Below, one piece after another: positions 7,018 to 42,668 of a DNA stretch of 64,000 bases (position 1 is the stretch's first letter; every line of letters begins with the position of its first letter). The DNA comes from a virus (Duplodnaviria; Caudoviricetes), in IMG/VR virus record IMGVR_UViG_3300020577_011550, positions 13,792 through 77,791 of that record; one strand, written 5' to 3'. The position numbers were made by a program, and so were the translations under genes. A model generated the notes under the pieces. That model saw nothing but the letters and a program-made list of their open reading frames with translations, was not told the DNA's origin and made no database searches.

Positions 7018-7088
7018 CAATCAGTTTGTTATAACTTTCAAATGTACCCGCCCTGCCCTCCGTATGGGGAATGGTTCACACACGATGC

Positions 7089-8390
7089 GTGGCACTCTAC
7101 AGCGGCTAAAGTCGCGTAGCATTTGAACGACGCTTGCGCTTGCCATTGCCTTTCAGCAATGACAGAGGCGCTACGTTATCGTTCACGGATGTGCCCCATC
7201 CGGCTCGATTTAAAATGTTGATCGCAGCATTGTGGTCTCTATCGAGCGAGAGGCCACAATCACATTCTACCCATCGGATTGATAGGCCGAAGTCATCAAA
7301 CAGTGAACCACAATTCGAGCATGTTTTGGAAGTGTAGGCAGGATCTACAAACGCGATCTCACGTCCGGCACTCGCAGCCTTGTACGTGAGCAATTGCTTG
7401 AAGAAACCCCACCCGGCGTCCAAAATGCTTTTACTGAGGTGTTTATTCCGTGCCATGTTGGTGATGCTTAAGTTCTCAATCGCAATCCGGTCATATCGCC
7501 GTACAAGATCATGACTCAGCTTGTGCATAAAGTCCTGACGCTGATTGGCAACGTGTTCATGCTGGCGCTGCACTTTCAGCAACTTCTTGCGGCGATTTTT
7601 CGACCCACGTTTCGCCCGCGCTAACTGACGCTGCAAACGGCGTAGACGTTTCTGTCCAGATCTATAAAAGCTAGGGTTGGTGGTCTTTTCCCCATCACTG
7701 GTTGTGATCAGTGACGCAATCCCAACATCGATCCCCACCACATGTCCATTTTTAGGGAGCGTTAACGGTTCGACAGTCTCGCAGGTAAAACAAACATACC
7801 ACTTGTCAGCGCGGCGAAGGATACGCAGAGTCTTGATTGTACCTTCTAGCGGGCGATGCCAACGCACGGGGATACGTCCGACGCCAAACAACCTCAAGCG
7901 GCGACCATCCAGCTTTGCCCCCATGCCGTACTGCTTGAACTCAAAACTGTTAAAACGGTTGCGAGACTTGAAGCGTGGATAGCCGGGGTTCTCTCCTGCT
8001 TTGACACGGCGAAAGAACGCCTGAAACGCAAAATCCACCTGTTTAACAACAGCTTGTGCTGTCTGACTAAACATCTGTTGGGCTGGCGGGAAAGTTAAAC
8101 GATAGTGTTTGGCAAGCTGCTCTAAGTCCGAAAGCGTGACCGTGCGTTTTTCTAGCTTGTAGGCGTATTTTCGTTCCGCTAGCGCCATGTTGTACAGGTT
8201 GCGGGCGCAATCTAAAACACGCAGTAAGTGTTTCTCCTGCGCCTTGCTTGGGTACAAGCGGTATTTAAAAACCTTGATATGAGTGCTAGAATTCGCCATG
8301 CTCTGACAGTCCTATTGTCGGAGAGCCAGTGGGGATTGCCGTCCCGTGACTGGCATTTTTTATTTTAGCACAAATGTTTGATTGTGCAAC
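7089..8390 (-). mobile_element. IS200/IS605-family tnpB-only element (left end approximate)
   Basis: After the tnpB stop comes a hairpin and ...GTAGAGTGCCAC, resembling IS605-type right ends; a leader hairpin GCCAGT...ACTGGC and extended -10 TGcTAAAAT lie upstream; no tnpA adjacent. Confidence 0.65.
7106..8299 (-). CDS. tnpB: RNA-guided endonuclease TnpB
   Basis: N-terminal FKYRLYP HTH; RuvC-I GIDVG, RuvC-II AIENL, Zn finger TSKTCSNCG...CDCG, RuvC-III DRDHNAAINI. Confidence 0.95.
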   Translation of the reverse strand: MANSSTHIKVFKYRLYPSKAQEKHLLRVLDCARNLYNMALAERKYAYKLEKRTVTLSDLEQLAKHYRLTFPPAQQMFSQTAQAVVKQVDFAFQAFFRRVKAGENPGYPRFKSRNRFNSFEFKQYGMGAKLDGRRLRLFGVGRIPVRWHRPLEGTIKTLRILRRADKWYVCFTCETVEPLTLPKNGHVVGIDVGIASLITTSDGEKTTNPSFYRSGQKRLRRLQRQLARAKRGSKNRRKKLLKVQRQHEHVANQRQDFMHKLSHDLVRRYDRIAIENLSITNMARNKHLSKSILDAGWGFFKQLLTYKAASAGREIAFVDPAYTSKTCSNCGSLFDDFGLSIRWVECDCGLSLDRDHNAAINILNRAGWGTSVNDNVAPLSLLKGNGKRKRRSNATRL

Positions 8391-8476
8391 CCTTAATCCC
8401 CTACCCCACCCTTTTCTCAAAATTCATGCGCGTGCTTTTGACAACCCTTATAGGCGACAACCTAAAGCTTTCTTAC

Positions 8477-8505: not shown

Positions 8506-8540
8506 TCTCATAATCACACACACGAAAGGATTTTGAGGTT

Positions 8541-9023
8541 ATGAGCACGAAAGCACAGCGTTTACTCCCCCACCTGATCGCCCACCTGAACGTTTGGAAC
8601 GAGCGCGCGTTCACCGTGTCACAGTTGTACGACGACCTGCTGCGCACGATTGACGATCCCAACTTCGACGTGCTGGAAGGTGTCAGCGAAGCCATCATCC
8701 GCGACGCCGCCAAGCTGCTGCCGGAAGGCTGCGTGAAGGTTCTGCCGAATCGCCGCCTTGTTCTCCAAGCCCGTGCCTTTGCCAAGCCTGAGGAACTTGT
8801 CAAAGTCCTGCGCGCCATCGAACGCGAACGGTTTCCGGAGACCGCCGATCTGAATCTCGGTCTGTTCGTCGACAAACTGATCGAAGACCTGCAATTCCGG
8901 CTGGTGTTGGGTCGTCCGTGGTACGTCCACCAATCGCTGGATTGGGCGAAGGCGACCGGGCTGTTTGAAGTGACGCCCACGTTCTACGGCATGATGCTGC
9001 GTTGGACGCGAGGTGCAGCGTGA
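8541..9023 (+). CDS. hypothetical protein (first gene of DNA-metabolism operon)
   Basis: Strong SD GAAAGGA...GAGG; 160 aa. Confidence 0.7.
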   Translation: MSTKAQRLLPHLIAHLNVWNERAFTVSQLYDDLLRTIDDPNFDVLEGVSEAIIRDAAKLLPEGCVKVLPNRRLVLQARAFAKPEELVKVLRAIERERFPETADLNLGLFVDKLIEDLQFRLVLGRPWYVHQSLDWAKATGLFEVTPTFYGMMLRWTRGAA

Positions 9024-9580
9024 ACACGGTCGATTGGGAACATCCGATTGGTTTCGAACGTGTCGTCAAAGGCGAGACCCGGCGTGAAAACCGCTTCCTC
9101 GTCACCTGCGGGGAGTGTGGCGAGTCCCGTTTGCTCAAGCGCATTGATGCGAAGAAGGTCGAGCAAACAGACGCGCCGTGCTACCCGTGCACGCAGCGCG
9201 AGAAGGGCAAGCTGGGCTACCGCGCGACCATCGAGCGGCATGGCGAAAACTTCTTCCTCGATCTCATCCGCGAACGTGAGCTGAACAATCCGCCGGTGCT
9301 CACCCGCGCGCTGATGGACATCCTCGATAACGTGCTTCACATCCGCTACGAACGTGAAATCCAATGTGGCCGCTACCTGATCGATTTCGTTATCGGCGAC
9401 CGGTTCGCCATCGAGGTCAACGGTGGTGTGCATGTGCTGCATGCCGAGCGCGACGCGCGCAAGGCGCAGTTCCTTCGCGAGCAGGGCTATGAACTGCTCG
9501 TCCTCGAACAAGCCGACATCCCCGACGCTGCTGATCGGGTGTGTGAATTTTTAGGAGTATACGAACTTGCAACGGTCTGA
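9020..9580 (+). CDS. DUF559/Vsr-like endonuclease with N-terminal CxxC pairs
   Basis: YEREIQCGRYLIDFVIGDRFAIEVNGGVH...RDARKAQFLREQGYELL. Confidence 0.8.
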   Translation: MNTVDWEHPIGFERVVKGETRRENRFLVTCGECGESRLLKRIDAKKVEQTDAPCYPCTQREKGKLGYRATIERHGENFFLDLIRERELNNPPVLTRALMDILDNVLHIRYEREIQCGRYLIDFVIGDRFAIEVNGGVHVLHAERDARKAQFLREQGYELLVLEQADIPDAADRVCEFLGVYELATV

Positions 9581-12500
9581 GATTGTGAAGGCGCTTGAGC
9601 CCTTCGTGCCATCCGATGAGCAGATGGCGATTTTTGAGGCGGCTGTCAATACGAAAGACAACATCGGCATTGACGCCAAGGCGGGGACAGGTAAGACGAC
9701 CTCGATTGTCCAGTTGGCGAAGCTGCTGCCCGGCGGAAAGTCCATGAAGAAGCGCTTCTGTGCGTTCAACAAGCCGATTGCCGATGAACTGGCGGATCGG
9801 CTGAAGGACACGGGCACCGATGCGAAGACGTTCCACAGCATGGGCGTGGGCGCGCTGATCCGCTATTTCGGCGGCAAGCAGATGAATCTGGACGACCGCA
9901 AGTATAAGAAGCTCGTCCAGGCGTGGTTGGCACTGCCCGACGAGCCGGAATGGGCGAAAGAGGTGGAGCAGCCCCGCGAACTGGCGCTGAAGGTGCGGGA
10001 ACTGGTGGTTCAGACGGTGAGCAAGCTGCCTCCGGATGATCGGAAGGAAATCGCCGCCGAGATGAACAAGCAGTTTATCGAGTTGATGACGAGCGTCTTG
10101 AACTTCCTGCGCCTGAAGCTGATCGGCTGGACGGATACCGCTGCGCTGCGCGATCTGATCGACCACTACAGCTTTCAGGACACCCTCCCCGATGAATTCG
10201 TCGACGTCGCGGTCGAGATCGTTCCCTATCTGATGGGGCTTGCCGAGCAGCTCGTGAAGAAGGCATTCGAAGTCGATTTCACCGACCAGATTTATTGGGC
10301 GGTATACTGGCAGATCCCGACTACGCAGTATGACTACCTGCTGGCAGACGAATGCCTGCCCTACTTGACCCCCGTGCAATTGGCTGACGGATCAGCGCTC
10401 CCGATTGGCGAGATCGTCGAGAAACGGCTGTCCGTGAAGGTGCTGGCCTACGACACGGCGACGGGTGAGCAGCGCGCGTGTGAAGTCACCGGTTGGAGCA
10501 GAACGCTCAATCAGAAACCGCTGGTCAAGATTAAGGCGCGCTGGACAAAAAGCCACAAAGATGTTGTGGCTGACGGCTATAAGCAGCGTCCCACTAATTT
10601 CGTCGTCTGCACCGTCGATCACAAGATCTGGGCAAATGGGACATGGATGTATGCGGGCGATGTTCGTCCCCGCATGGTTGTACAGGTCGAGACGGGCGCG
10701 ATCAAGTCGCAGGCATACAAGATCACCACCAGCGGGCGCGAAACCCTTTCCAGCGAAATGACCGCTAAAAACCGGGAGGGGATTGTCGCGAATCATCGCG
10801 GTGGGTCGATCACGGTCCGGGGCGGGAACGGGCGTGGGCTGACACTGGCGCAGAGCGTGCTGCTTGAAGCGCTTGGCGAAGGCTGGACAGCCGAATACGC
10901 AGTAAAAACGGGATTGCGTCAGGACAGCGGTTATCCCACGAGCTACAAAGTGGACATCGCTAATCCGGAACGCATGATCGCCGTTGAGGTCGATGGTGAA
11001 ACCCATCGTAACCCGGTTCAAAAGCAGCGTGATCAGAAGAAACAGGCGCTGCTTGAAACGCTTGGCTGGACGGTGCTGCGCTTTTCGAACCGCCAGTGCA
11101 TCCAGACCACACAGCAGTGCGTGCAGGCGATCAACGACGATTGCCCGCTCGATGCGATTGTCGCGTCGGTTGAACCGATGAGCCTGCCTGACAACTTCGT
11201 CTATGACATCACTGTCGCCGACTGCCATAACTTCTATGCCAATGGCATCCTCGTCCACAACTGTCAGGACATCAACCCCATGCAGCGCACGCTGCTGGCG
11301 CGTTCCATCAAGCCGAACGGCGGGCGCATCATCTTCGTGGGCGACCCGGATCAGTCAATCATGAATTTTGCAGGGGCCGACTCGGACAGCTTCGAACTCT
11401 CCGTGAAAACTTTCAACGCGAAGGTGCTGCCGCTCACCCTCACCCGCCGCTGCGATCAAGTGATCACGCACCATGCTGCCCAGCTCGTCCCTGAATTCCG
11501 CTGCCCGCCGGAGAAGCCGCGCGGCAAATTTGTGTGGCTGGACGAGTCGCGCATGGCAGGCATTGTGCAGCCCGGTGACATGGTCGTTTGTCGCATGAAA
11601 GCGCCACTGGTGACCGGGTGCTTGAACGTGATCGCGGAAGGCAAACCCGCCACTATTCTAGGCAGTGACATCGAAAAAGGCTTGATCGCGCTGCTCGAAA
11701 AGCGCAGCGACTACAAAGACGACTTCGACAATCTGGATGACGCGCTGGATGGCTACGAAGCCGAACAGGTGGAGCACTTCACAGCGCGCGATGAGCTTCA
11801 GGCCGCGGATGCCGTTGCCGATCAGTGTGCGGCGCTGCGCACCATCATCCACCGCGCGAAAGCCGACGACATGGACGCCTTGAAGCGCTATATCGAAACC
11901 CTGTTCTCCAGCGGCAAGAAAGAGGACATGGTCGTCTTCGTGACCGCGCATAAGTCGAAGGGCTTGGAGGCGGATCGCGTGTTCATCCTCGCACCGGATC
12001 GGATGCCCCTGTCCTATCCGAACATGCTGCCTGAATCGGCAGTACAGGAAATGAACCTGCTGTACGTCGCACTCACCCGCGCCAAACACACGCTGGTGAT
12101 CCTCACCAACGAGAAGTATCGCAAGAACAATGTCATGCCCGCCTACGGGCAGACAGACTTTGACGAGCACCAATGGGCAGCCGACGAGTTCGAGCCAAAG
12201 CCTCCGCAGGAATACGACTACGTCTACAACAGTCGGCATGATGATTTCGACCGCGTGCCCGTTAATTCGCCCGTGGGCGAAACGACGATTGATGAGATCG
12301 TGCAGATGATCAAGGACTCGGGCGTTGAGGGTTGGGATCTCGAACTGTCATCCGGCTTCGAAGACAACGGCCCCAGCCAATGGGTGCTGGCCTACGATGA
12401 CCCCGAGCTGGTTGACGACATCATTTTGGGCAGCAACCTGACGATGGTCAAGCAGCGGCTGGAAGTGGAATTGAAGCGACTCGCCAACGCCAATCAAGCG

Positions 12501-12665
12501 CCGCCTGAACCCGTCGCGCCTGCCCCGGTCGTCATCACACCCATCATCCCGGAGAAGGTTGATAAGCTGCGCGCGGTCGTCGCGACGCTCACCGATGTCG
12601 AGCTGGAGGACATGATCCGCTATCTCTCCCAGTTCCGTGAAGAGCGCCGGAAGGCCAGCCCGTGA
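9567..12665 (+). CDS. UvrD/Rep-like superfamily 1 helicase containing an intein
   Basis: AKAGTGKTT (motif I), DE|CQD (motif II, split by the intein), [30 protein letters not shown]; TTG start after AGGAG. Confidence 0.9.
10353..11261 (+). mobile_element. intein (303 aa) with a DUF559/Vsr-like endonuclease domain
   Basis: Starts [13 protein letters not shown] and ends [21 protein letters not shown] followed by Cys(+1); internal [19 protein letters not shown]...[19 protein letters not shown]. Confidence 0.9.
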
Positions 12666-13696: not shown

Positions 13697-14157
13697 CCTG
13701 CGTGATTCCGAATTGCACACGCCAGCGTAAAGTCAGCCGCACGGGCAAAGAACTGACGATGTGCGATGAGCACAACCGGGAATACTGGCGTCGGCAGAAG
13801 AACAAGGACTGGGACGGTTGGCCGGGTCAGAAGCCCGGCAAGCGTGGCGGGGCGCGAACCAAGCGGACTCCACCGCCAGCCCTGCCCGAACCGCCCCGGA
13901 ATATTCGCGTGCTGGCGCTGCGCTGCGACGTCTGCCGAATCAAGAAGGCGATCAGCGAATTCGCGCCGGGTGCGCGGACGTGCAGCACCTGCGCCAGCGT
14001 GGGACAGGTCATCAGCATCATCGACCCGGTCAAGAACACGGTGCGGCATGCGCGCGTGATCGGCATGGACGAACAGCCGCGCAAGATTGAGACCTACTAC
14101 GGACTGTTCGTCCAGCAGGAAAAAGAGAGCGGCGCGCTGGTGGTGGTGGAGGGGTAA
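13693..14157 (+). CDS. zinc-finger hypothetical protein
   Basis: CxxxxC...CxxH, CDVC and CSTC motifs. Confidence 0.55.
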   Translation: MTCVIPNCTRQRKVSRTGKELTMCDEHNREYWRRQKNKDWDGWPGQKPGKRGGARTKRTPPPALPEPPRNIRVLALRCDVCRIKKAISEFAPGARTCSTCASVGQVISIIDPVKNTVRHARVIGMDEQPRKIETYYGLFVQQEKESGALVVVEG

Positions 14158-17270: not shown

Positions 17271-17298
17271 AGAAGCCGGGCATTACGCCCGGCTTTTT
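17271..17298. terminator. intrinsic terminator between convergent operons
   Basis: AAGCCGGG-cattacg-CCCGGCTTTTT. Confidence 0.8.
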
Positions 17299-18076
17299 AG
17301 TTATGCTGAGGAAGTGTCGGTTTTGGAGTCTCACGCCGAAATTCAAAATCCCAATCGGCATTCCCTACCCACGGATAGGTACAATCTGGCATCGCCTTAA
17401 TCTCAAGCACTTCTTCTGGAGTCAAAGAGAACCACTCGGTATCGCCATGTCGCTTATCTGCATATCGTACATGCAGCTCGTGCTCTAAGCAGGCGATTTG
17501 GTTGCTCTGAATCTGGTGTAGAAGCTCAATGCTGAACGGCAACCCTGAAGTAATTTCGCGTCCACGTCGCTGTGGGTTGTTCGAAAAGCCGATCTTGTAG
17601 TGCCCTGTCGAAAGCTGAAACAGATACACATAGCCAGTATGAGGATCGGGATATTTCCAATACAGGTCTTTAAAGCGGAGATATTCTTCATACCGTCTCA
17701 AAAGAGTGTCGGCCTCTTCAAGACGATCATGAAGCATTAGCACTTCATCGGTCGGCTGTAAAACGCACTGCTCGTAAAAGTAGCTACACCACAGTTCAAG
17801 CTGGCTGCGTCCTTCGTCAGAGCGAACGAACCAACGAATAAATTGAACAAACTCAGTGTCCAGATACTTATGGTTCCGATAATGTTCAATTCCCGTATCT
17901 AAACGCTTGTGCATCCAATACAGGTTAGCAGCAGCAAGCAGAGCTTTATGGTTAAGTTGAACATGGAGAAGAGTCTCAGCGAGCGCGTTTACATCCGCGC
18001 CATATACATCGGAAACAAGTTCAATCGAGGTTTCACCGATTAGGAATTTGAATCCACTGATTTTGATGTTATACAT
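17297..18076 (-). CDS. GIY-YIG-like T5orf172-domain protein
   Basis: GYVYLF...YKIGFSNNPQRR...LEHELH..Y...EWF; AT-rich. Confidence 0.85.
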   Translation of the reverse strand: MYNIKISGFKFLIGETSIELVSDVYGADVNALAETLLHVQLNHKALLAAANLYWMHKRLDTGIEHYRNHKYLDTEFVQFIRWFVRSDEGRSQLELWCSYFYEQCVLQPTDEVLMLHDRLEEADTLLRRYEEYLRFKDLYWKYPDPHTGYVYLFQLSTGHYKIGFSNNPQRRGREITSGLPFSIELLHQIQSNQIACLEHELHVRYADKRHGDTEWFSLTPEEVLEIKAMPDCTYPWVGNADWDFEFRRETPKPTLPQHN

Positions 18077-18183
18077 CGCGCACCTCCGCGATTTGTCACC
18101 TATGAAGAGATGGCAGTCAGGACGGTAGGTGTTCCGTCTTTTCGGTGATCAGCCTAGACTGCCAATAGAATTATACCATGTGA

Positions 18184-21116: not shown

Positions 21117-22044
21117 GAAGCACCGCCAGTGCCTGTTCGAGCACCCCGGCGATGGACTCACGCCGCAGCCGCGCTTCGAGCAGATCGACAAACGTCTTAA
21201 CCCGCTTGCCTTCCGCAACACGCCACTTATCCGGCATCCGGTTCAGCTTATCCCAGTAGGCAAGAGCGCGGGCACTCGTCATCTCCAGCGGTTCATAGTC
21301 ACCGTATCCGACATAGACCCACACCTTGCCATCCGGACGCAGGAATGGCGACGACCAAACAAACGGCGGACGTTCGGGCTTTTCTTTCGGTGGCGACCCC
21401 GCAGCCGTGATCGGCGCTTCCAGCCCGCGCAGGCCAAACATAGCCTGCTGGCGGATCTTGTATTTGGATGGCTCACCCCATTGGTGACGCGCGCCAAACT
21501 GTTTGGAATACGTCTTAATGGAGCGATTCTTTGGCTCGATGTAAGGCAGGCCGCACAGCGCGAACCAGTCTTGTTCGGTCGCAATTTTGAGACGTTCTTC
21601 GCCCGCATAGACATACCCGTCTTTGACGTGGAACGGGGCGCTGCCGTGCTTGATCTTCGTGACCAGATACATGTTGGCATTATCTGCCGGATTGCCGGGA
21701 CCGGTGCGGAGCCATGTCATGTACCCGCGGTTCCAGTCGTCACACAAAAATAGCTCCGCCTTCATGCCTTGATAGACTAGGCCGCGGTATTTCTCACCCC
21801 AGCGCGTGGTCTTCTTTTCGCCGTAGAGCGCTTTGCTGATCGCCCCCTGCGCGACGAGACCATCAAGGAAGGAGGAATAAGAGGGGAGGGCAGTCGCCAC
21901 GATCTCGATATCGCCAACCTCAGCTCGTTCGCGCCGCAGTGAACCGGCGATCTCACTCCACACAAGGTGCGGGCGGATCAGCGCGAGCAGCGCGTCGGCA
22001 ATCGGACGGACTTCGACCGCGGGCCGCTTCTCCCCGTCAGACAA
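21109..22044 (-). CDS. polX: family X DNA polymerase (minimal PolX / beta-like nucleotidyltransferase)
   Basis: IAGSLRR...GDIEIV, ELF, TWLRTGPG, EQDWFALCGLPYIEP; TTG start after GGAGGAGG. Confidence 0.8.
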   Translation of the reverse strand: MSDGEKRPAVEVRPIADALLALIRPHLVWSEIAGSLRRERAEVGDIEIVATALPSYSSFLDGLVAQGAISKALYGEKKTTRWGEKYRGLVYQGMKAELFLCDDWNRGYMTWLRTGPGNPADNANMYLVTKIKHGSAPFHVKDGYVYAGEERLKIATEQDWFALCGLPYIEPKNRSIKTYSKQFGARHQWGEPSKYKIRQQAMFGLRGLEAPITAAGSPPKEKPERPPFVWSSPFLRPDGKVWVYVGYGDYEPLEMTSARALAYWDKLNRMPDKWRVAEGKRVKTFVDLLEARLRRESIAGVLEQALAVLRD

Positions 22045-22285
22045 CGGTTTCCTCCTCCGGGATGGGCAGCAGATCACTTAACTGACACCCGAGGAACTTG
22101 GCTAAGGCAATGAGCGTTTTGACGTTCATGGTTTCGAGTACGCCCTCATCACCTCTCAGTAAATGGCTGATGGTCTGCGTGCGTACCCCCGTTGCTTGCG
22201 AGATCTCCCGCTGCGTGTAGCGCTTGTTGTCGCGCTTGTCCTTTTCCGTCAGCAGCGCCAAAAACCGATTTTCCTGTTTTCCCAC
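22037..22285 (-). CDS. XRE-family repressor (candidate immunity repressor)
   Basis: YTQREISQATGVRTQTISHLL...TLIALAKFLGCQLSDLL; located at the divergent switch. Confidence 0.85.
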   Translation of the reverse strand: MGKQENRFLALLTEKDKRDNKRYTQREISQATGVRTQTISHLLRGDEGVLETMNVKTLIALAKFLGCQLSDLLPIPEEETVV

Positions 22286-22368: not shown

Positions 22369-22607
22369 TTTAATATTCTCATGTTCATAGAGGGCGGTTC
22401 ATGGTTTATCTTGATAGTAAATGCTCATTATTTCAGATTTGTAACCAACCTCTGACGTTAAATTCACGCGGGTTAGTTGTACTATGAAACTAATAACGTT
22501 GATAGGCGGCTATGGCCGTATATACCCTATAGCCGATGTAACAGATTTCTTTTTTGATCATTGCTATGCTCACCCACGACACACAACATTCAAGAAAGGT
22601 GAGGATC

Positions 22608-22841
22608 ATGAGCCAGCATGTGGATCCAAAACATTGGGGACGCTTACGATTACCGGAAGAGCTCATCGACGCATCGAAAGCTATATGCAAGCGAGAAGGG
22701 TTCAATCCGCAGGACGAATTCCATCTGTTCCTGTACTTCACCCTTCACAAAGCGTTCCCCGAATGGACGGCGCACGCGACCGAGCTGCACGAACTCGACT
22801 GGCTGCGTGCGCAGCTCGAGGAAATGGGCAAGATCACGTAA
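22608..22841 (+). CDS. small DNA-binding-like protein (RHH/Cro position)
   Basis: SD GAAAGGTGAGG; GRLRLPEELIDASKAICKREG resembles a ribbon-helix-helix. Confidence 0.6.
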   Translation: MSQHVDPKHWGRLRLPEELIDASKAICKREGFNPQDEFHLFLYFTLHKAFPEWTAHATELHELDWLRAQLEEMGKIT

Positions 22842-28654: not shown

Positions 28655-28683
28655 TTGCTATACCATACGGTCTATGGTATACT
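28655..28683 (+). promoter_or_regulatory. promoter with embedded palindromic operator (copy 2)
   Basis: TTGCTA-N17-TATACT containing TATACCATA-cggtc-TATGGTATA. Confidence 0.85.
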
Positions 28684-28706
28684 CCTTTCAATGAAAGGAG
28701 AGGGAT

Positions 28707-29012
28707 ATGCCGGAGACCGTAATCACCATCGTGATCCCCGACGGGCAGGACGAGGCAAAAACCGCCAACATCCTGCTCCGCCGCGGGGACAACGCCCGCA
28801 TTAAATCCATCACATTTTCCACACTCGCCGACCTGACCGACGCAGTTCACGATCTCTCGCTTGAGGTTCAAGAGATCGAGTTTGCGGCTGAGCCGGAGAA
28901 GGTCAAGAAAGCCTCCCGCAAGAAAGCGGATCACCCCGTTGCGCCTAAAGGCCAACCCAACCCACAGCCCGTCGCGGCTGAGTTTTCCGTCAAGCAGCAG
29001 ATCCTATTTTAG
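28707..29012 (+). CDS. PRTRC protein E-like protein
   Basis: First gene of the cassette; Lys/Pro-rich C-terminus ending QQILF, reminiscent of PRTRC protein E. Confidence 0.45.
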   Translation: MPETVITIVIPDGQDEAKTANILLRRGDNARIKSITFSTLADLTDAVHDLSLEVQEIEFAAEPEKVKKASRKKADHPVAPKGQPNPQPVAAEFSVKQQILF

Positions 29013-31642: not shown

Positions 31643-32240
31643 CAACAATGCACAGGGCACGATCGAAAAACTTGTCTCGCCCGAAGGCCTCGCCCAGATG
31701 CTGAGTGGCTTGGCGAAACCGTCGTGGAACACCGGACTGCTCACGCCGAACACGTTGTGGATGGGCGACCTCAACGGTAAGCGGGTGGTGGTTGAGTACC
31801 GCAAGCCGCAGGTGACGGGTATCTGGCTGGATGGCAGTGAGACCCCATTGCGCGTAGCGCTGCCGGGGCTGGTCATGCTGCGCGAGGTCAAAGTGGATAC
31901 GAACGCGTCCTATCGCCTGTGGGCGGTCAAGCGACGTCCGCGCAACCTCAAGGCGAAGCTCTACAATGCGCCGCTGCCGAATGTTGGCGGCAGTGGGGCG
32001 TGTTGGGGCACGGTCACGGTCGATAAACGTGACCCGGTCAGCCTAGCAGCGGACTGGAAGGCATTTCTCGGTTCGCGCTTTGGCGATCACTCCTGCAACG
32101 GTAAGTCGAAGATGGAGAAGAACGACATCCGCAAGCGCCTGATCCAGATCGACGGCATGAATGAAGATAGCTATCCGCTCGGCGATTTGGTCGATAGCGG
32201 GCAGACGCTCGAAAAAGCGCTCAAAGAGGTGACCAAGTGA
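31530..32240 (+). CDS. prokaryotic E2 family D protein (PRTRC protein B)
   Basis: TGLLTPNTL...LPGLV...LYNAPLPNV..GACWG (candidate catalytic Cys)...FLGSRF. Confidence 0.8.
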   Translation: MYVMTAPPSNALASAFQSIQAQPILSLTFMPYGIVLRSNNAQGTIEKLVSPEGLAQMLSGLAKPSWNTGLLTPNTLWMGDLNGKRVVVEYRKPQVTGIWLDGSETPLRVALPGLVMLREVKVDTNASYRLWAVKRRPRNLKAKLYNAPLPNVGGSGACWGTVTVDKRDPVSLAADWKAFLGSRFGDHSCNGKSKMEKNDIRKRLIQIDGMNEDSYPLGDLVDSGQTLEKALKEVTK

Positions 32241-33034
32241 GCTACGAATTCGACCCGCAGCTGCACCTGAAATTGATCGTCATCGTCGGCTTGGGCGGCA
32301 CAGGCAGCCAGCTCGCGCGGTCGGTCACGCGCATGGCCTACGATATGCGCCGCCGGAACATGTTCACACCAGATATTTTGTTCATCGATCCAGATGTGGT
32401 CGAGGAAAAGAATGTCGGCCGCCAAATGTTTACCGCCGCCGACGTGGGGCAAAACAAAGCCGAAGTGCTCGCCCGGCGCTTCAACTACGCGCTCGGTCTC
32501 GGCATCACGTGGCGTGCGGAGCCAGTGACCGGCGATCTGTTCAAAGAAATCAAGCTTACTGATCACAGCACCTATCGCGGCAACGAAGTGATTCTGTGTG
32601 GCGCGGTCGATAACCATGCCGCCCGCGCGGAACTGGCGAAGATCAACGCGACGTGGATCGACGCTGGCAACCATTTCGCCGCCGGGCAGGTGGTCATCGG
32701 CAACACGTCTGATGCGGGCAGCGTGAAACGCGCGCTGGAGGAAGCGAAACGCGTGAAGCGAAAGACGCTCATGCTCAGCCCCAACGCTGCGCTCGTGTTC
32801 CCCGAGCTGCTCCAGCCCGATGAGAAACCGAAGATCTCCTGCGCGGATCTGGTCGCGCTCGGCGATCAGCACCTGCTCATCAACGACGCGGTCGCGATGG
32901 TCGCGGCGCAGTATGTATTCAAGCTGCTTTTCCGCCAGCCGATCACCACGTTCAAGTCGTACATCAGCCTCGAAACACTCGCCATGCGCAGCGTGGCGCT
33001 CTCCGAAGACGAACTCCTACCTTATCTGAATTAA
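32237..33034 (+). CDS. ThiF/E1-like adenylyltransferase (PRTRC ThiF)
   Basis: VGLGGTGS, DPDVVEEKNVGRQ, NKAEVLA, AVDN, WIDAGN, SCA. Confidence 0.9.
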   Translation: MSYEFDPQLHLKLIVIVGLGGTGSQLARSVTRMAYDMRRRNMFTPDILFIDPDVVEEKNVGRQMFTAADVGQNKAEVLARRFNYALGLGITWRAEPVTGDLFKEIKLTDHSTYRGNEVILCGAVDNHAARAELAKINATWIDAGNHFAAGQVVIGNTSDAGSVKRALEEAKRVKRKTLMLSPNAALVFPELLQPDEKPKISCADLVALGDQHLLINDAVAMVAAQYVFKLLFRQPITTFKSYISLETLAMRSVALSEDELLPYLN

Positions 33035-33106
33035 AACACAAAGCCCCCGCTTGAGGCAGCGGGGGCTTCTATGAAAGGAGGTGAGGTTCACTTCTTTTCA
33101 CACACG
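33034..33106 (-). ncRNA. candidate ~70-nt anti-Shine-Dalgarno small RNA
   Basis: Between a TTGACA-N17-TATGCT promoter and a terminator; body GGCGUGUGUGAAAAGAAGUGAACCUCACCUCCUUUCAUAG. Confidence 0.6.
33040..33068. terminator. bidirectional intrinsic terminator
   Basis: AAAGCCCCCGCT-tgaggc-AGCGGGGGCTT. Confidence 0.8.
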
Positions 33107-33112
33107 CCCTCA

Positions 33113-33141
33113 AGCATACGAATTTTTTCTAACCTTGTCAA
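33113..33141 (-). promoter_or_regulatory. sigma70 promoter of the candidate sRNA
   Basis: Minus strand TTGACA (33141-33136), 17 nt, TATGCT (33118-33113). Confidence 0.75.
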
Positions 33142-33146
33142 TCTAT

Positions 33147-33175
33147 TTGCTATACCATACGCTTTATGGTATACT
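33147..33175 (+). promoter_or_regulatory. promoter with embedded palindromic operator (copy 3)
   Basis: TTGCTA-N17-TATACT containing TATACCATA-cgctt-TATGGTATA. Confidence 0.85.
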
Positions 33176-33208
33176 ACCCTTAACCTTATGAGGAAAGGTT
33201 GAGGTCAC

Positions 33209-33457
33209 ATGCAACACACACATTTGTTGGACGAATTATTGGAGCAAGCCCGAGCGCATCAGGACGAGGAACGGAACGTCTCCTATGCGCACCAGTGGTA
33301 CAGCGGCGTGTACGTGCAGATCATAGCGATCGGCCTGCAAATGGCGATCTTTACGATCGGCGCGATGATGCCGGACGAACTGCCGCTCGTGACGGATGAC
33401 TATCAGCAAGCGGCTGAATTCTTCGAAGAGCAGATGCAGAGCGCGGAGGCCTTCTGA
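33209..33457 (+). CDS. hypothetical protein (first gene of early operon)
   Basis: Strong SD; 82 aa. Confidence 0.65.
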   Translation: MQHTHLLDELLEQARAHQDEERNVSYAHQWYSGVYVQIIAIGLQMAIFTIGAMMPDELPLVTDDYQQAAEFFEEQMQSAEAF

Positions 33458-33663
33458 TGGACATTTATCTCCAGCATGAAGATTGGCGCGATTGCCCGGT
33501 CATTTATCCCCGGAACAATCCGCTCATGGGCGAAATTGTCCCCACGCCGAAGCCCTCGCTCGACAGCTCAACGCTCATCGGTCTGGGCTATCGCGAAGTT
33601 GCGCCCGATCTGTTGGTGCGCACTGGCATGACCAAGGCGCGCCGCCCCGCTGCACATCTTTGA
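33457..33663 (+). CDS. hypothetical protein
   Basis: TGATG overlap. Confidence 0.5.
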   Translation: MDIYLQHEDWRDCPVIYPRNNPLMGEIVPTPKPSLDSSTLIGLGYREVAPDLLVRTGMTKARRPAAHL

Positions 33664-33664
33664 A

Positions 33665-33880
33665 ATGTGGTACATCGATGAGACCGGGCCGCGGCACGTT
33701 TGCGGTTACGGCACAAGCCCGCGTGCTGCGCATGCCGATGCATGGCGGCTGCGTCGCCAGGTCGCGAATCACGGTTCGCGCATTGCAGCCGCCGAGTTTG
33801 CCCGCAGTCGGATCAAGCAGATTGCCTTCAAGGACGTCGCCGACGAACGCGCGCTCCGCCAACTTGAGTTAGCGGGGTAG
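33665..33880 (+). CDS. hypothetical protein
   Basis: Operon packing. Confidence 0.5.
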   Translation: MWYIDETGPRHVCGYGTSPRAAHADAWRLRRQVANHGSRIAAAEFARSRIKQIAFKDVADERALRQLELAG

Positions 33881-33885
33881 GGCAG

Positions 33886-34188
33886 ATGAAGACGACCTGT
33901 CCTGTTTGCAATGGTGATCGCACGATTCGCAGTCTGCACATGACTGCTGCCGGGCCCGATGAAGTCAACTGCTGGTTCTGTGAAGGCAAGGGGGAGGTTC
34001 CGGTTTCGACCGAGCCGATTTATGTCCTGACCACGAGCCAGATTCACCCGTGGATTTACTCGCAGGCGTGGGTCAAGGGCACTTTGGCGAAGATCCAGCA
34101 TCCGCGTCATGGCACGTTTTACGCGAAGCAGCGTGGCTCGTGCTGGCACCGCATCGAACGCAAGCTGCCGTTCGGCTATGGACTGTAG
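33886..34188 (+). CDS. DnaJ-type zinc-finger hypothetical protein
   Basis: CPVCNG...CWFCEGKG. Confidence 0.55.
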   Translation: MKTTCPVCNGDRTIRSLHMTAAGPDEVNCWFCEGKGEVPVSTEPIYVLTTSQIHPWIYSQAWVKGTLAKIQHPRHGTFYAKQRGSCWHRIERKLPFGYGL

Positions 34189-34197
34189 GGGAAGATC

Positions 34198-36663
34198 ATG
34201 ACGATGCTCGAAGGACTCACTAAACCGATGCGCGACGCGTTGAACGCGATCCGCGCTGGCGGCGAATCGACCATGAAGGCGAACACCAACACGATCAAGG
34301 CGCTGATCGACCGCGGGCTGATCGAAGTCGCGGCGATTGAACAGCCGCAGCGCTGGTTGCTTTCGCCCGTGGGCGAAATGGTCTACTTCAACGACGAGGT
34401 CTTGTCCACGTATCAAACGACCAGCTTCGCGCCGGGGCAGGATGTGCAGTATCTGCACTGGCATACCAACGGTTATCCGTGGCGCTTTGAATGGGAAGCC
34501 GGGCAGGTTGAGCGCATCACCAAAGCATTCGTGTTCGTGAAGTATCCGAACGGCGAGGTGAAGCAGCACGTGCCCAAGCGCTTACGTCACAAGCCGATGC
34601 CGACGCTCAGCGCGGTGATAGCCGAGGCTTTGATTGAAGCTGCTGCGCTGCAATCGACCGACACCAGTTTCGAGCCGTACATCTCCGAGCCGCGCATGGT
34701 CGATGACAAGCTCATCGCCGTGACCGCGATCTGCAATATCTGTGGCTGCCAGTACGACTCGATCCACCTGAAAGGGCTGCGCAATCCGTGGTTGTTCGCG
34801 AACCTGAATCCGCGCTGCCCGGCGTGCTTGTGGCCGGACATTGACGACCGGATCAAGAAGATACGCGAATCGGAAGCCCTGTCGCATGACGAACCCCTCG
34901 TCGTGGAGCCGCGCATGGTCAACGATAAGCTGATCGCTGTGACGGGCTTCTGCGATGTGTGCGGTTGCCAGTACGATGATATTGTTCCCTACGAGATGCC
35001 CCGCGAACGCCTTTGGCGCTGGACAAACTTGGTTTCGCGCTGCTCGGTGTGCTTCCGGAACAACTGCTACGAATGTGGCAAGCCGCTGCCCGCCACCAGC
35101 GACGAACGCAGCATCGGGTACTGTGACGAGTGCAATACACGGCCATTAGGGAGCAAAAAAGCGGCTGAGCAAATCCCTAATATCCCGACCGCCGCTCACA
35201 TCGACTATCCGCTGCTCGTGACGTTCCTCGCCGATGGGGAGAACGCGTTTCATCACTTATGGGCTTGGTACGCGGGTGTGATTTCCATCGCGTTGATGGA
35301 CTACGAGCGTGTCTCCTCAGAGGATGCGATGAAGCGTGCCATGCGCAGCGCCGCCGCTCTGCTGCACCTGCGCTTCGAGGAAGAATACCTGCGCCTCGTC
35401 GATGCAGTCGGGCACAATAACGACGCGGACGCGCTGTTTCACGTGCTGCCCATCAATGCGGAAATGACGGTGCGCACGTGGATGATCGAGTACGGCCAAT
35501 TTGATTACACGGCTCAGCTGATCGACCTGCGCCAGACCGCCCGTGAACATGCCGTCTACGTTGACCCGATCCCTACGCGCTTGACGCCATTGGAATACCG
35601 CGAAGGGCAGTACAGCTCTCGGCAGCGCGCCGGGGTGTGCCGCGTTTGGTGGCACGCGCCGTCCACGCGCCGCTTCGTCGAACACGTCACGCAAGATAGC
35701 TCGACCGGCAGATGGTACGTTCACGCGCACAAACTGGAGATCCCCATCCCGCTGATACCAGATGAATACTTCACCGTCGAAGAATTGACGCCCGCGCGGA
35801 TCAATGACCGCGTGCAGCGTTTGGATGATGGGCAGTTGGGCACGGTCGTCGGCGTCAGCGGCGGCGACGTGTGGGTGAAGCCGGAGCAGGGCGGGGAGCA
35901 GCCGCGCTGGAAGCGCGTGCACGTTGACATCATTTATCCGAAAGACCCGACCGGCGATGAAACTGATGAATACCTGTCGGATGAAGCTGTGCCCCCACCG
36001 TGGACGCCGGATATTTTGAAGCGCGTCCGTATCAAGGCTGGACTTCATGCCGGCATCATCGCCCAAGTCACGGATATTGGCGCGAATGCACGCGGGGCAA
36101 CCTACAAGGTATTCAGCGAATGGTACAACGCCTCCGATTTGGAAGACCCCAACACGCCCATGACGCTTCTGTCCGACGAAGAGATCGCCCACACCTGCGC
36201 GAAGATTCGCCTGCACCTGCATGGCGGGATGCGCGTCGGGTTGATCGAATCAGTGACGCACCTGCTCGATCAGCAGTATCAGGTCAAGTTCGTTCACTTC
36301 ACTGACTACATTCCCCACGCGATTCTCGAACGCATCGAATTCCTGTACATGGTCGATGATCATGACCGTTCGTCCGTCCTGATCGGATTGGACAGCCCCC
36401 CATTGTGGCGTCTGAGTCAGTCCGACGAAGCCCGCGAATTTCAGGCCGTGTTGGATGCCGCCGGAATCGCGCTGCAAGCCCGTTTTAACGCGCAAAACGA
36501 ACTTATCGTCTTTCACCCCCTTGAGGATGTTTTAGAACGCTTGTGCGCCAACGTGCGCAAGCTGGCGGGGGTTTTAGCGGTCGATCTCGGATTCAACAAC
36601 AACCCGTGCTTGGCGCAGGTCAAGCTTCAGAAAATCTTAGAAGGGGCAACCGCCAATGGCTAA
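34198..36663 (+). CDS. large mosaic protein with duplicated Zn-ribbon and several SH3/KOW-like modules
   Basis: 821 aa; EPRMVxDKLIAVT..C..CGCQYD occurs twice; RVQRL..GQLGTV and RVRIK.G...GII modules. Confidence 0.7.
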   Translation: MTMLEGLTKPMRDALNAIRAGGESTMKANTNTIKALIDRGLIEVAAIEQPQRWLLSPVGEMVYFNDEVLSTYQTTSFAPGQDVQYLHWHTNGYPWRFEWEAGQVERITKAFVFVKYPNGEVKQHVPKRLRHKPMPTLSAVIAEALIEAAALQSTDTSFEPYISEPRMVDDKLIAVTAICNICGCQYDSIHLKGLRNPWLFANLNPRCPACLWPDIDDRIKKIRESEALSHDEPLVVEPRMVNDKLIAVTGFCDVCGCQYDDIVPYEMPRERLWRWTNLVSRCSVCFRNNCYECGKPLPATSDERSIGYCDECNTRPLGSKKAAEQIPNIPTAAHIDYPLLVTFLADGENAFHHLWAWYAGVISIALMDYERVSSEDAMKRAMRSAAALLHLRFEEEYLRLVDAVGHNNDADALFHVLPINAEMTVRTWMIEYGQFDYTAQLIDLRQTAREHAVYVDPIPTRLTPLEYREGQYSSRQRAGVCRVWWHAPSTRRFVEHVTQDSSTGRWYVHAHKLEIPIPLIPDEYFTVEELTPARINDRVQRLDDGQLGTVVGVSGGDVWVKPEQGGEQPRWKRVHVDIIYPKDPTGDETDEYLSDEAVPPPWTPDILKRVRIKAGLHAGIIAQVTDIGANARGATYKVFSEWYNASDLEDPNTPMTLLSDEEIAHTCAKIRLHLHGGMRVGLIESVTHLLDQQYQVKFVHFTDYIPHAILERIEFLYMVDDHDRSSVLIGLDSPPLWRLSQSDEAREFQAVLDAAGIALQARFNAQNELIVFHPLEDVLERLCANVRKLAGVLAVDLGFNNNPCLAQVKLQKILEGATANG

Positions 36664-41042: not shown

Positions 41043-41069
41043 TATATTTCAAGTGAGGCACACACACAC

Positions 41070-41780
41070 ATGAAGCAGCAACAGGTACTTGAGGCACTCC
41101 AAAAGGTGGTGGACGCTCAATCGATCCACCCGAATACCGCAAGATCGCTGATCAGCCAGAATCTGATCATCGCGACCGAGACGGGCTACCTACTGACGGA
41201 AGATGGTCGTATCCTGCTCGGCGAACAGCTGGTCATTCAGCAATCGACGCGCGTGAAAGACGGTCTGCTCTGGCACACGATCGGCACGCCGTTCACGACG
41301 CGCGCCGAAGCCGAAGACGCAGCCCGGCTGCGTTCAGTGGCGGACGAAGTTGACTATCGCGTAGTGCTGGCTGACGGCATTGAACCCCAAACCTTCATCG
41401 TGTATTCCTACGGCATCCGCTATTTGCAAGACGTGAACGAACTGCGCACGCGTGAGACGACCATCGTTCGCCCCGAAGGCGACGAAGGCGATCCGCTGCA
41501 TATTTTCGCGGTCGAGCGGAATCAGGGGACAGGCTGGCAGCGCTACGGCACGCAGCTGTACACCTCGCAGGTGGATGCTGAAGGTGCGGCTTCGTCCGCA
41601 TCGCAGACCAAAACGGGCGATTACCGGATCGTCCTCGACGAAAGCCCGCTGCTGCTACCGGTGATGTGGCGCGGCGGGCGACGCATGCCGGATGTTCATT
41701 TGCTGCGGCAAATGGGCACGATTGCCGGCGGCGGGACTGAGCATATTGAGACTCTTGTCCAGATCTGGACAGGGGACTAA
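41070..41780 (+). CDS. hypothetical protein with an internal repeated module
   Basis: SD GTGAGG; GTPFTTRAEAEDAAR..DYRVVL echoed by QLYTSQVDAEGAA..DYRIVL. Confidence 0.6.
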   Translation: MKQQQVLEALQKVVDAQSIHPNTARSLISQNLIIATETGYLLTEDGRILLGEQLVIQQSTRVKDGLLWHTIGTPFTTRAEAEDAARLRSVADEVDYRVVLADGIEPQTFIVYSYGIRYLQDVNELRTRETTIVRPEGDEGDPLHIFAVERNQGTGWQRYGTQLYTSQVDAEGAASSASQTKTGDYRIVLDESPLLLPVMWRGGRRMPDVHLLRQMGTIAGGGTEHIETLVQIWTGD

Positions 41781-42357: not shown

Positions 42358-42386
42358 AACTCTCATCATCAAAGGATGAGGGTTAG

Positions 42387-42668
42387 ATGATTCACACACC
42401 ATCACTCACCAAGGTTCTATCCGGATTGGATGTGCGCGCCCTGCGTGCCGTCCAATCGCTTGCGCAGGAGCAGATCACCGCGCGGGAACGGATGCAGGCG
42501 CAGTTATTGAGGATGACTGCGGATTATGATTCAATTGGGCCGCTGTGGACGGCGACCACCTATGGTCTGGGCTACGTTGAGAAACCGGGTTACATGGTGC
42601 TCGACGGCCCATTTACCAGTCGTGTAAGTGCTGAGCAGGTCTTAAAGGAGGTCGTTACCCATGTTTGA
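42387..42668 (+). CDS. hypothetical protein (first gene of operon)
   Basis: SD AAAGGATGAGG. Confidence 0.6.
   Translation: MIHTPSLTKVLSGLDVRALRAVQSLAQEQITARERMQAQLLRMTADYDSIGPLWTATTYGLGYVEKPGYMVLDGPFTSRVSAEQVLKEVVTHV

Follow-up and report, generated by a model that had tools for sequence, protein, structure and literature searches.

What does the short spacer in front of an early operon of an uncultivated phage encode, and with what does its product pair? The window analysed here is a 64-kb stretch (64,000 nucleotides, nt; positions 13,792 to 77,791) of IMG/VR record IMGVR_UViG_3300020577_011550, a 77.8-kb phage record with a CheckV completeness of 81%. A spacer of 175 bp between the ThiF/E1 gene (32237-33034) and a gene for a protein of 82 amino acids (aa), called gene 33209, carries a compact unit of promoter, short body and terminator. 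An earlier note on this DNA had read the unit as a small RNA (sRNA) complementary to the Shine-Dalgarno (SD) sequences of several early operons. Judging from the window and its relatives, the unit is very probably an sRNA gene whose product pairs with early operons at their translation initiation regions. The sRNA changes in step with the ribosome-binding region of its neighbour, and thus most likely shuts off translation of that neighbour through pairing. With a probability of roughly three in four, a divergently transcribed noncoding RNA of ~70 nt blocks translation initiation of gene 33209.

The unit lies on the minus strand (Table 1). Its sigma-70-type promoter, TTGACA-17-TATGCT at 33141-33113, stands back-to-back with operator promoter 3 (P3), as the earlier note had it, and the -35 boxes of the two promoters are 5 bp apart. 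The body between promoter and terminator is ~37 nt long, CGUGUGUGAAAAGAAGUGAACCUCACCUCCUUUCAUAG, and has no open reading frame (ORF). The terminator was also described correctly: on the minus strand a hairpin at 33069-33040 precedes TTTGTGTTTT. For the predicted RNA (33106 to ~33034) the fold has a minimum free energy of -34.7 kcal/mol (z = -6.05). The description of ~40 unpaired nt in front of the terminator does not hold, because the 5' part is predicted to form a modest hairpin of its own, in which GUGUGAAAAGAAGUGA pairs with UCACCUCCUUUCAUA and only the first few G/U residues are left single-stranded. A hairpin is predicted in this position in all lineages, with differing sequences. The unit has its own promoter and an intrinsic terminator and contains no conserved ORF, like members of the trans-acting base-pairing sRNA class. 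The minimum free energies of the minus and plus strands do not discriminate between the strands. In a search of Rfam, phage antisense families included, the sRNA matched no family at the gathering score; the best match in the region (E = 0.24) was to an unrelated family.

Relatives were gathered from metagenomic contigs through homologues of the ThiF protein and of the 82-aa protein. Ten units from about seven distinct lineages were compared: the window, L012, L008/L023, L019, L013/L024, L015/L021, L017, L018, L044 and L045. Scans of IMG/VR with the ThiF protein and with an alignment of the 82-aa protein, and a scan of the GTDB genome collection, found no relative; a scan of JGI metagenomes added L019 only. 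In all ten cases the unit lies beside a homologue of the 82-aa gene, not of the ThiF gene. The gene upstream of it is a PAPS-reductase gene in L008 and a different gene, of 273 aa, in L013. L017, L018 and L045 have other palindromic operators than the window, and promoter spacers and flanks are unrelated between lineages, so that upstream gene, operator and spacer all differ while the unit persists.

Seven units have TTGACA as their -35 box; the remaining three have TTGACG, TTGACT or TTGAAA. In all ten a -10 box follows at 17-18 nt, the predicted start coincides with the beginning of a 5' G/U run, and an internal hairpin precedes the terminator. The eight units compared for this feature carry the T-rich tail solely on the minus strand, and four pairs of the terminator stem show compensatory double changes among the six alignable units. 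Compensatory changes, together with hexamers that are kept amid unrelated spacers, are the signature of a maintained gene. A covariance model of the sRNA finds exactly one copy per phage in the window's clade and no extra copies in the window or its relatives.

These observations bear on the possibility that the locus has no RNA function, being a bidirectional terminator next to a chance promoter, with complementarity left over from a duplicated promoter-leader module. The leaders behind the four operator promoters are indeed paralogous modules, the plus-strand copy in the unit aligns colinearly with the P3 leader, and promoter-like matches near the unit are only modestly enriched (3 found against 0.9 expected locally). 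A relic would decay, however, yet here the complementarity is kept as both partners change (L044, L017, L018 and L045), and promoter and terminator are kept across lineages with completely diverged operators and spacers. An origin of this kind without a present function is therefore very unlikely.

The primary target was sought among the 94 predicted initiation regions of the genome, which were scored with RNAduplex; pairing to the 16S rRNA tail was regressed out as a correction for SD strength. The duplex with the leader of the adjacent gene 33209 ranks first of the 94 and third of 15,548 genome windows. On the mRNA, which has a 5' untranslated region (UTR) of ~27 nt, the predicted duplex spans -23 to +16. 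In the relatives every 60-nt stretch of each locus was scored on both strands: the adjacent initiation region ranks first in L015, L017, L018, L044 and L045, second in L008 and fourth in L013. The C/A repeat that follows the AUG reads CAA CAC ACA CAT (QHTH) in the window, ACC ACA CAC ACA (TTHT) in L017, ACA CAC ACA (THT) in L018 and GAC ACA CAC ACC (DTHT) in L045. Since the run is read in different frames, the constraint lies on the nucleotides and not on the protein.

The two partners have also changed together. In phages of the window type the 5' seed GUGUGUG pairs with CACACAC within codons 2-6 of the adjacent gene. The L017 sRNA has GUGUGUGUGGUC, opposite GACCACACACAC in its target (12 bp). 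L018 pairs GUGUGUUAUCUU with AAGAUGACACAC, over the AUG and with one G-U pair, its seed-target pair being UGUGUGUUAUCUU with AAGAUGACACACA. The seed of L044 is GUGUUGUU and its target AACAACAC; here the start of the sRNA, GUGUUGUUUGUGUGACCGUGAACC, and the start of the gene, AUGGUUCAAGAACAACAC, form a nearly continuous duplex of 23 bp from -6 to +21. When RNAs and targets were crossed, the L017 and L018 RNAs favoured their cognate targets (-33 kcal/mol, other combinations -19 to -28 kcal/mol). Covariation in related phages, a check that the earlier note had proposed, is thus seen in L044, L017, L018 and L045 against their own targets, and in L024 as a joint change of length at operator promoter 4 (P4). 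The note had placed a second seed, GUGUGUG with CACACAC, beyond generic SD matching, and the relatives bear this out: the conserved core of the RNA appears to be the G/U seed and not the anti-SD tract. From the same comparison, the primary and universally conserved target would be the adjacent gene, not the four operons equally.

As a control for orientation, the plus-strand copy was set against the antisense strand of the target. In L013, L018 and L044 the real orientation beats this mirror pairing by 4.7-9.2 kcal/mol, since G-U wobbles contribute to the real duplexes. Seed-target covariation, the ranks within loci and the orientation control together indicate RNA-RNA pairing of a minus-strand transcript with a plus-strand mRNA.

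The same evidence can be set against two explanations in which the minus-strand RNA plays no part. In one, the plus strand is functional: a copy of an initiation region that lacks a start codon would be carried by read-through transcripts from upstream and bind the 30S subunit as a stabiliser or standby site of the STAB-SD kind. The plus strand does read GAAAGGAGGTGAGG...CACACAC with no start codon behind it, its U tract at the terminator is poor, so that read-through is plausible, and it has GAAAGGAGG, presumably equal to the STAB-SD of cryIIIA. An SD-like sequence without a start codon is, however, present in window-type units and absent in L017, L044 and L045. Moreover, all ten units keep the minus-strand hexamers and place the start precisely at the repeat, and the U tract is confined to the minus strand. 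Only in the antisense orientation can G-U pairing accommodate the differences between copy and target. A plus-strand function is thus improbable.

In the other explanation the direct repeats that flank the divergent promoters (33071-33106 and 33186-33224) are DNA sites for a protein, which might for example loop the DNA around the operator, since they bracket the promoter/operator region. But they tolerate bulges and indels of 1-13 nt, their differences are transitions that preserve G-U pairs, the distance between them varies by ~30 nt or more among relatives, and one of them lies inside a coding sequence whose frames shift. Protein-binding repeats are the least probable of the alternatives.

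The RNA of the window also contains UCACCUCCUUUC, whose 12 nt are identical to the canonical Bacillus-type tail of 16S rRNA. At 33073-33084 the window reads GAAAGGAGGTGA; the complement AAGGAGGTGA has a single occurrence in the 77.8-kb genome. This identity, reported in the earlier note, is present here but restricted to four of the ten units (the window, L012, L008 and L019), which have near-identical bodies and form one group. L013 and L015 have CCUCACCUUUC instead, the complement of their local leader motif GAAAGGU(U)GAGG; the tract of L018 is CUUCCUCA, and no comparable anti-SD tract was found in L017, L044 and L045. It therefore appears that in some lineages this tract is what matches the RNA to the SD region of its cognate target, and that the perfect 16S match is a by-product.

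Mimicry of the 16S tail, by which a genuine RNA would soak up strong SD sites of many phage or host mRNAs, has in its favour the 12-nt identity, the uniqueness of the complement in the genome and the correlation of duplex energy with SD strength across genes (r = 0.52). Restriction of UCACCUCCUUUC to one near-identical group makes ribosome mimicry, or the titration of host SD sites that had been suggested, unlikely as the function. The tract also sits in the stem of hairpin 1, and the genes with the strongest SD sequences are not the best targets after correction. Such a role is very improbable. Nor does the RNA belong with the anti-SD, 16S-tail-mimic sRNAs as a class, in which CCUCC is conserved and exposed; here it occurs in 4 of 10 units and is predicted to lie inside a stem.

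Beyond the adjacent gene, the window's RNA matches a small number of other leaders. The four repeated operator promoters of the phage, at 8474, 28652, 33144 and 42326, share the palindrome ATACCATA-N5-TATGGTAT inside their spacer, and the earlier note had named all four first genes, as well as genes 41070 and 22608, as targets. The matches it quoted (8524-8540, 28691-28700, 33193-33221, 42371-42399, 41053-41069 and 22595-22606) are all in the sequence. After SD correction the sites at 33209, 42387, 8541 and 41070 exceed generic SD matching; those at 28707 and 22608 do not (Table 1). Ranking the targets against ordinary SD-containing genes, another check proposed at the time, gave a permutation p = 3e-4 for the first genes behind the four operator promoters, which were the a-priori set, and ~0.01 without the adjacent gene. 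Complementarity to target initiation regions is thus above chance.

Table 1. Positions of the sRNA unit, its promoter neighbour and its predicted targets, with ranks among the 94 initiation regions where available.
Feature	Position	Strand	Remarks
-35 hexamer TTGACA of sRNA promoter	33136..33141	-	kept as TTGAC[A/G/T] or TTGAAA in 10/10 units, spacers diverging
-10 hexamer TATGCT, 17-nt spacer	33113..33118	-	in relatives TATGCT, TATGAT, TAGCAT, TACACT or TACTCT at 17-18 nt
Predicted sRNA, ~70 nt, no conserved ORF on either strand	33034..33106	-	from fold and covariance model
5'-terminal G/U seed GUGUGUG at predicted transcription start	33099..33105	-	covaries with codons 2-6 of adjacent gene
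Hairpin 1, 3' side with CU-rich tract UCACCUCCUUUC (complement of 33073-33084)	33070..33102	-	predicted fold
Intrinsic terminator, 12-bp stem and U tract	33030..33069	-	GC-rich hairpin 33069-33040, then TTTGTGTTTT
Operator promoter 3 (P3), TTGCTA-17-TATACT, palindrome ATACCATA...TATGGTAT	33147..33175	+	spacing to sRNA promoter varies in relatives
Primary target: initiation region of gene 33209 (SD GGUUGAGGU, AUG, CACACAC in codons 3-5)	33186..33224	+	duplex -31.6 kcal/mol; duplex rank 1, SD-corrected rank 1
82-aa gene 33209, first gene of operon	33209..33457	+	stop overlaps next start (TGATG)
Probable second target: initiation region of gene 42387, first gene behind P4, AAAGGAUGAGGG...AUGAUUCACACAC	42370..42400	+	ranks and L023/L024; duplex rank 3, SD-corrected rank 2
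Possible third target: GUGAGGCACACACACACAUG of gene 41070	41053..41072	+	cofold energy rank 1; pairing needs 13-nt bulge in sRNA; duplex rank 13, SD-corrected rank 10
Weak candidate: leader of gene 8541 (operator promoter 1)	8515..8543	+	duplex rank 8, SD-corrected rank 5
Gene 22608			duplex rank 14, SD-corrected rank 35
Gene 28707			duplex rank 24, SD-corrected rank 42

The case for gene 42387 comes from its ranks and from two relatives. With their cognate RNAs, the first genes behind P3 and P4 are the best two initiation regions in L023 (of 26) and in L024 (of 32), where the homologue of gene 41070 ranks 5 and 7 and the gene behind P2 (operator promoter 2) ranks 4 and 8, respectively. The G/U run of the L024 sRNA and the C/A run behind its P4 are each 2 nt longer than in the window, a joint lengthening that amounts to direct, if small, covariation of the sRNA with the P4 target. 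The leader of gene 41070, GUGAGGCACACACA, is conserved in L023 and L024. At gene 8541 CACACAC stands ahead of the SD, which breaks the colinearity of the match, and the order of seeds claimed in the earlier note fails there; the duplex with gene 33209 extends over SD, AUG and C/A run. CACACAC occurs at about ten places outside the sRNA (both genome strands counted), four of them within 30 nt of a promoter-proximal start codon. In the fragments of L017 and L018 no other initiation region is among the best sites, and CACACAC is found only in the unit and its target, plus one L018 site inside the upstream primase gene. The adjacent gene may accordingly be regarded as the ancestral target, to which the clade of the window would have added the P4 gene and perhaps 41070 and 8541; duplication of the promoter-leader-start module possibly helped this extension.

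At the two genes that show only generic SD pairing, other features were seen. The leader behind operator promoter 2 (28683-28701) is self-complementary, CUCCUUUC-AAU-GAAAGGAG, a predicted anti-SD/SD hairpin in cis, which would mask the ribosome-binding site of that leader; L023 has an identical hairpin, of which L024 retains part. At 22595-22610 and 22037-22285 a minus-strand gene for an XRE helix-turn-helix (HTH) protein faces the 77-aa gene 22608, which has the leader ACGACACACAAC followed by GAAAGGUGAGG, and the arrangement looks like a switch region. Pairing of the sRNA with the 22608 leader is no better than SD strength predicts.

The steps by which the RNA could act may be outlined as follows. 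An RNA of ~70 nt would be transcribed from its own minus-strand promoter, divergently from P3, and end at the intrinsic terminator. Pairing would be nucleated by its free 5' G/U repeat, at the C/A repeat that lies within codons 2-6 of the 33209 mRNA, and in this phage the duplex would then extend over the start codon and the SD by way of the CU-rich 3' side of hairpin 1. Transcripts from P3 are predicted to start near 33182, so the duplex at 33186-33224 would cover nearly the whole 27-nt leader, the AUG and five codons. Because this is the footprint of an initiating 30S subunit, repression is expected. The stop of gene 33209 overlaps the next start in the window and also in relatives, and repression should therefore spread downstream by translational coupling; mRNA decay would probably also lower expression of the operon behind it. 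The seed and the CCUCA tract also fit the first gene behind P4 and, less well, 41070 and 8541, which suggests that the RNA may set a translational threshold on several early units below a protein repressor acting on transcription. A candidate for the latter is the XRE-type HTH gene at 22037-22285. Transcription of the RNA, its repressive rather than activating effect and the time of its action are points that we infer.

The distance from the sRNA promoter to P3 varies from 5 to ~35 nt among relatives, so the two promoters are separable. Since the sRNA promoter, in addition, does not overlap the operator, the RNA is probably made whether or not the operator is occupied. An operator-independent RNA would suit a threshold filter on leaky early transcription. 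One may go further and imagine the (CA)n run as a tag on the first genes of several early units, read by one constitutive sRNA that adds an RNA layer of immunity above the protein repressor. Drift of the seed (GUGUGUG, GUGUUGUU, GUGUGUGUGGUC) would then define RNA-based hetero-immunity groups resembling those of the c4 RNA of phages P1 and P7, although arising from an independent, divergent gene. This extension is doubtful. The lysogeny or superinfection-immunity switch proposed in the earlier note is likewise a hypothetical role: the record has the XRE-type repressor candidate, but no integrase or resolvase was found in it at 81% completeness.

Several points weigh against a translational block of gene 33209 by the RNA. 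The covariance model does not recognise the L017 or L018 RNAs, and the units of L017, L018, L044 and L045 appear to be tied to that of the window by position, architecture and the homologous neighbouring gene, not by an alignable RNA sequence. RNAduplex energies are noisy, and several sites in coding regions score like the real target. For window-type phages, and for L017, the mirror pairing is about equal to the real orientation. In the predicted folds only 4-8 nt of the 5' seed are free and the anti-SD tract is within a stem. Four runs labelled 'METAGENOMIC RNA-Seq cDNA' provide contigs, possibly DNA, from relatives of 90-99% identity, which show neither the strand nor the ends of a transcript; none of the sources listed is on record as RNA. 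The promoter-plus-seed pattern TTGACA-N17/18-TATGCT-N5/8-GTGTGTG had a single chance match in IMG/VR; GTDB genomes gave 18, and no match looks like the unit.

The ThiF/E1 gene upstream of the unit is the last gene of a PRTRC-like operon. Downstream, no family was found for the 82-aa protein in Pfam or PHROG; the ESM Atlas gives it a confident, compact model, likewise without family, and the protein has one hydrophobic stretch (Kyte-Doolittle 19-residue mean 1.89). A similarity search of 32000-35000 against known phages gave no match. The second gene of the P3 operon (33457-33880) is split over two frames at a C-run, with the break near 33647. In relatives it is a single ORF of 141-149 aa, and contigs of related strains are one base shorter at 33645; the split is a frameshift, an assembly error or a pseudogene.

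A search of IMG/VR with the operator pattern returned one phage (G001; L001/L004, UViG 3300010371_000001, 102 kb), otherwise unrelated, in which the operator promoter, TTGCTATACCATA-N5-TATGGTATAAT, recurs beside an XRE-type HTH gene transcribed in the divergent direction. It shares the operator and the adjacent XRE gene only, not the sRNA, and the repressor-operator module seems to be common to unrelated phages. Directly upstream of operator promoter 1 lies a minus-strand gene (7106-8299) for a TnpB of the IS605 family, with OrfB_IS605 and Cas12f1-like TNB domains; a copy of CACACAC is found at 7077, just past its 3' end. Behind the same promoter is a plus-strand gene for a UvrD-type helicase (9567-12665) with an intein-splicing domain and a DUF559/Vsr-like endonuclease segment. 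An Rfam int-alpA RNA motif (46.9 bits) lies on the minus strand at 18097-18164, upstream of a gene with a T5orf172/MUG113 domain (17297-18076).

To our knowledge, regulatory RNAs of uncultivated phages are almost unknown, and most candidates consist of a promoter, a terminator and a generic anti-SD tract. In the present case the RNA and the start region of its neighbour change together in independent lineages, so that the target can be named from sequence alone, and the locus yields a directly testable RNA-target pair. It further suggests a means by which a phage could filter the leaky output of early promoters under repression. There is also a practical warning, in that the eye-catching 16S-tail match appears to be a lineage-specific by-product of pairing with one leader and not a conserved function.

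Among known systems, the divergent type I antitoxin sRNAs (IstR-1/tisB, OrzO/zorO, OhsC/shoB and AgrB/dinQ) are similarly encoded beside their targets, divergently and without overlap. In those systems short complementarity represses translation of the neighbour (PMC4147584; PMC3919570), and the antitoxin pairs within a long 5' UTR without overlapping the initiation site (PMC4147584). The predicted duplex of the phage RNA lies instead on the SD, AUG and codons 2-6, with a 5' UTR of only ~27 nt. Type I toxins, moreover, are stand-alone peptides of typically less than 60 aa, small and hydrophobic, in two-gene loci, whereas the target here has 82 aa, a compact predicted structure and no family, and stands at the head of a long phage operon; further targets also seem to exist. 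The locus was for these reasons not assigned to the type I toxin-antitoxin systems.

Functionally, the nearest phage precedent is c4, which acts through short complementary segments that include the ribosome-binding site, with RNA-target covariation setting immunity specificity. This antisense RNA of the immI operon of phages P1 and P7 is ~77 nt long and represses synthesis of the early Ant proteins in trans (PMC8546580). According to Citron and Schuster (1992), as cited there (PMC8546580), c4 and its targets share one transcript, from which c4 is processed. The phage RNA described here has its own divergent promoter and terminator and matches no Rfam family, and is thus not an immunity RNA of the P1/P7 c4 type.

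The seed has a different parallel. GcvB reportedly uses a G/U-rich single-stranded seed that pairs with C/A-rich sequences in or near ribosome-binding sites. That RNA is host-encoded, Hfq-dependent and ~200 nt long, with many targets, and the likeness to the phage RNA is one of G/U seed against C/A sequence, with no relation in sequence or in Rfam. RsaE/RoxS and the cuckoo/alpha-r14 RNAs likewise carry a C/U-rich tract complementary to SD sequences; in them the C-rich motif is the conserved, exposed seed, whereas in the phage it is lineage-specific and lies within a stem, the role of conserved seed falling to the 5' G/U repeat. On these comparisons the phage sRNA is filed as a putative new family of a known kind of regulator.

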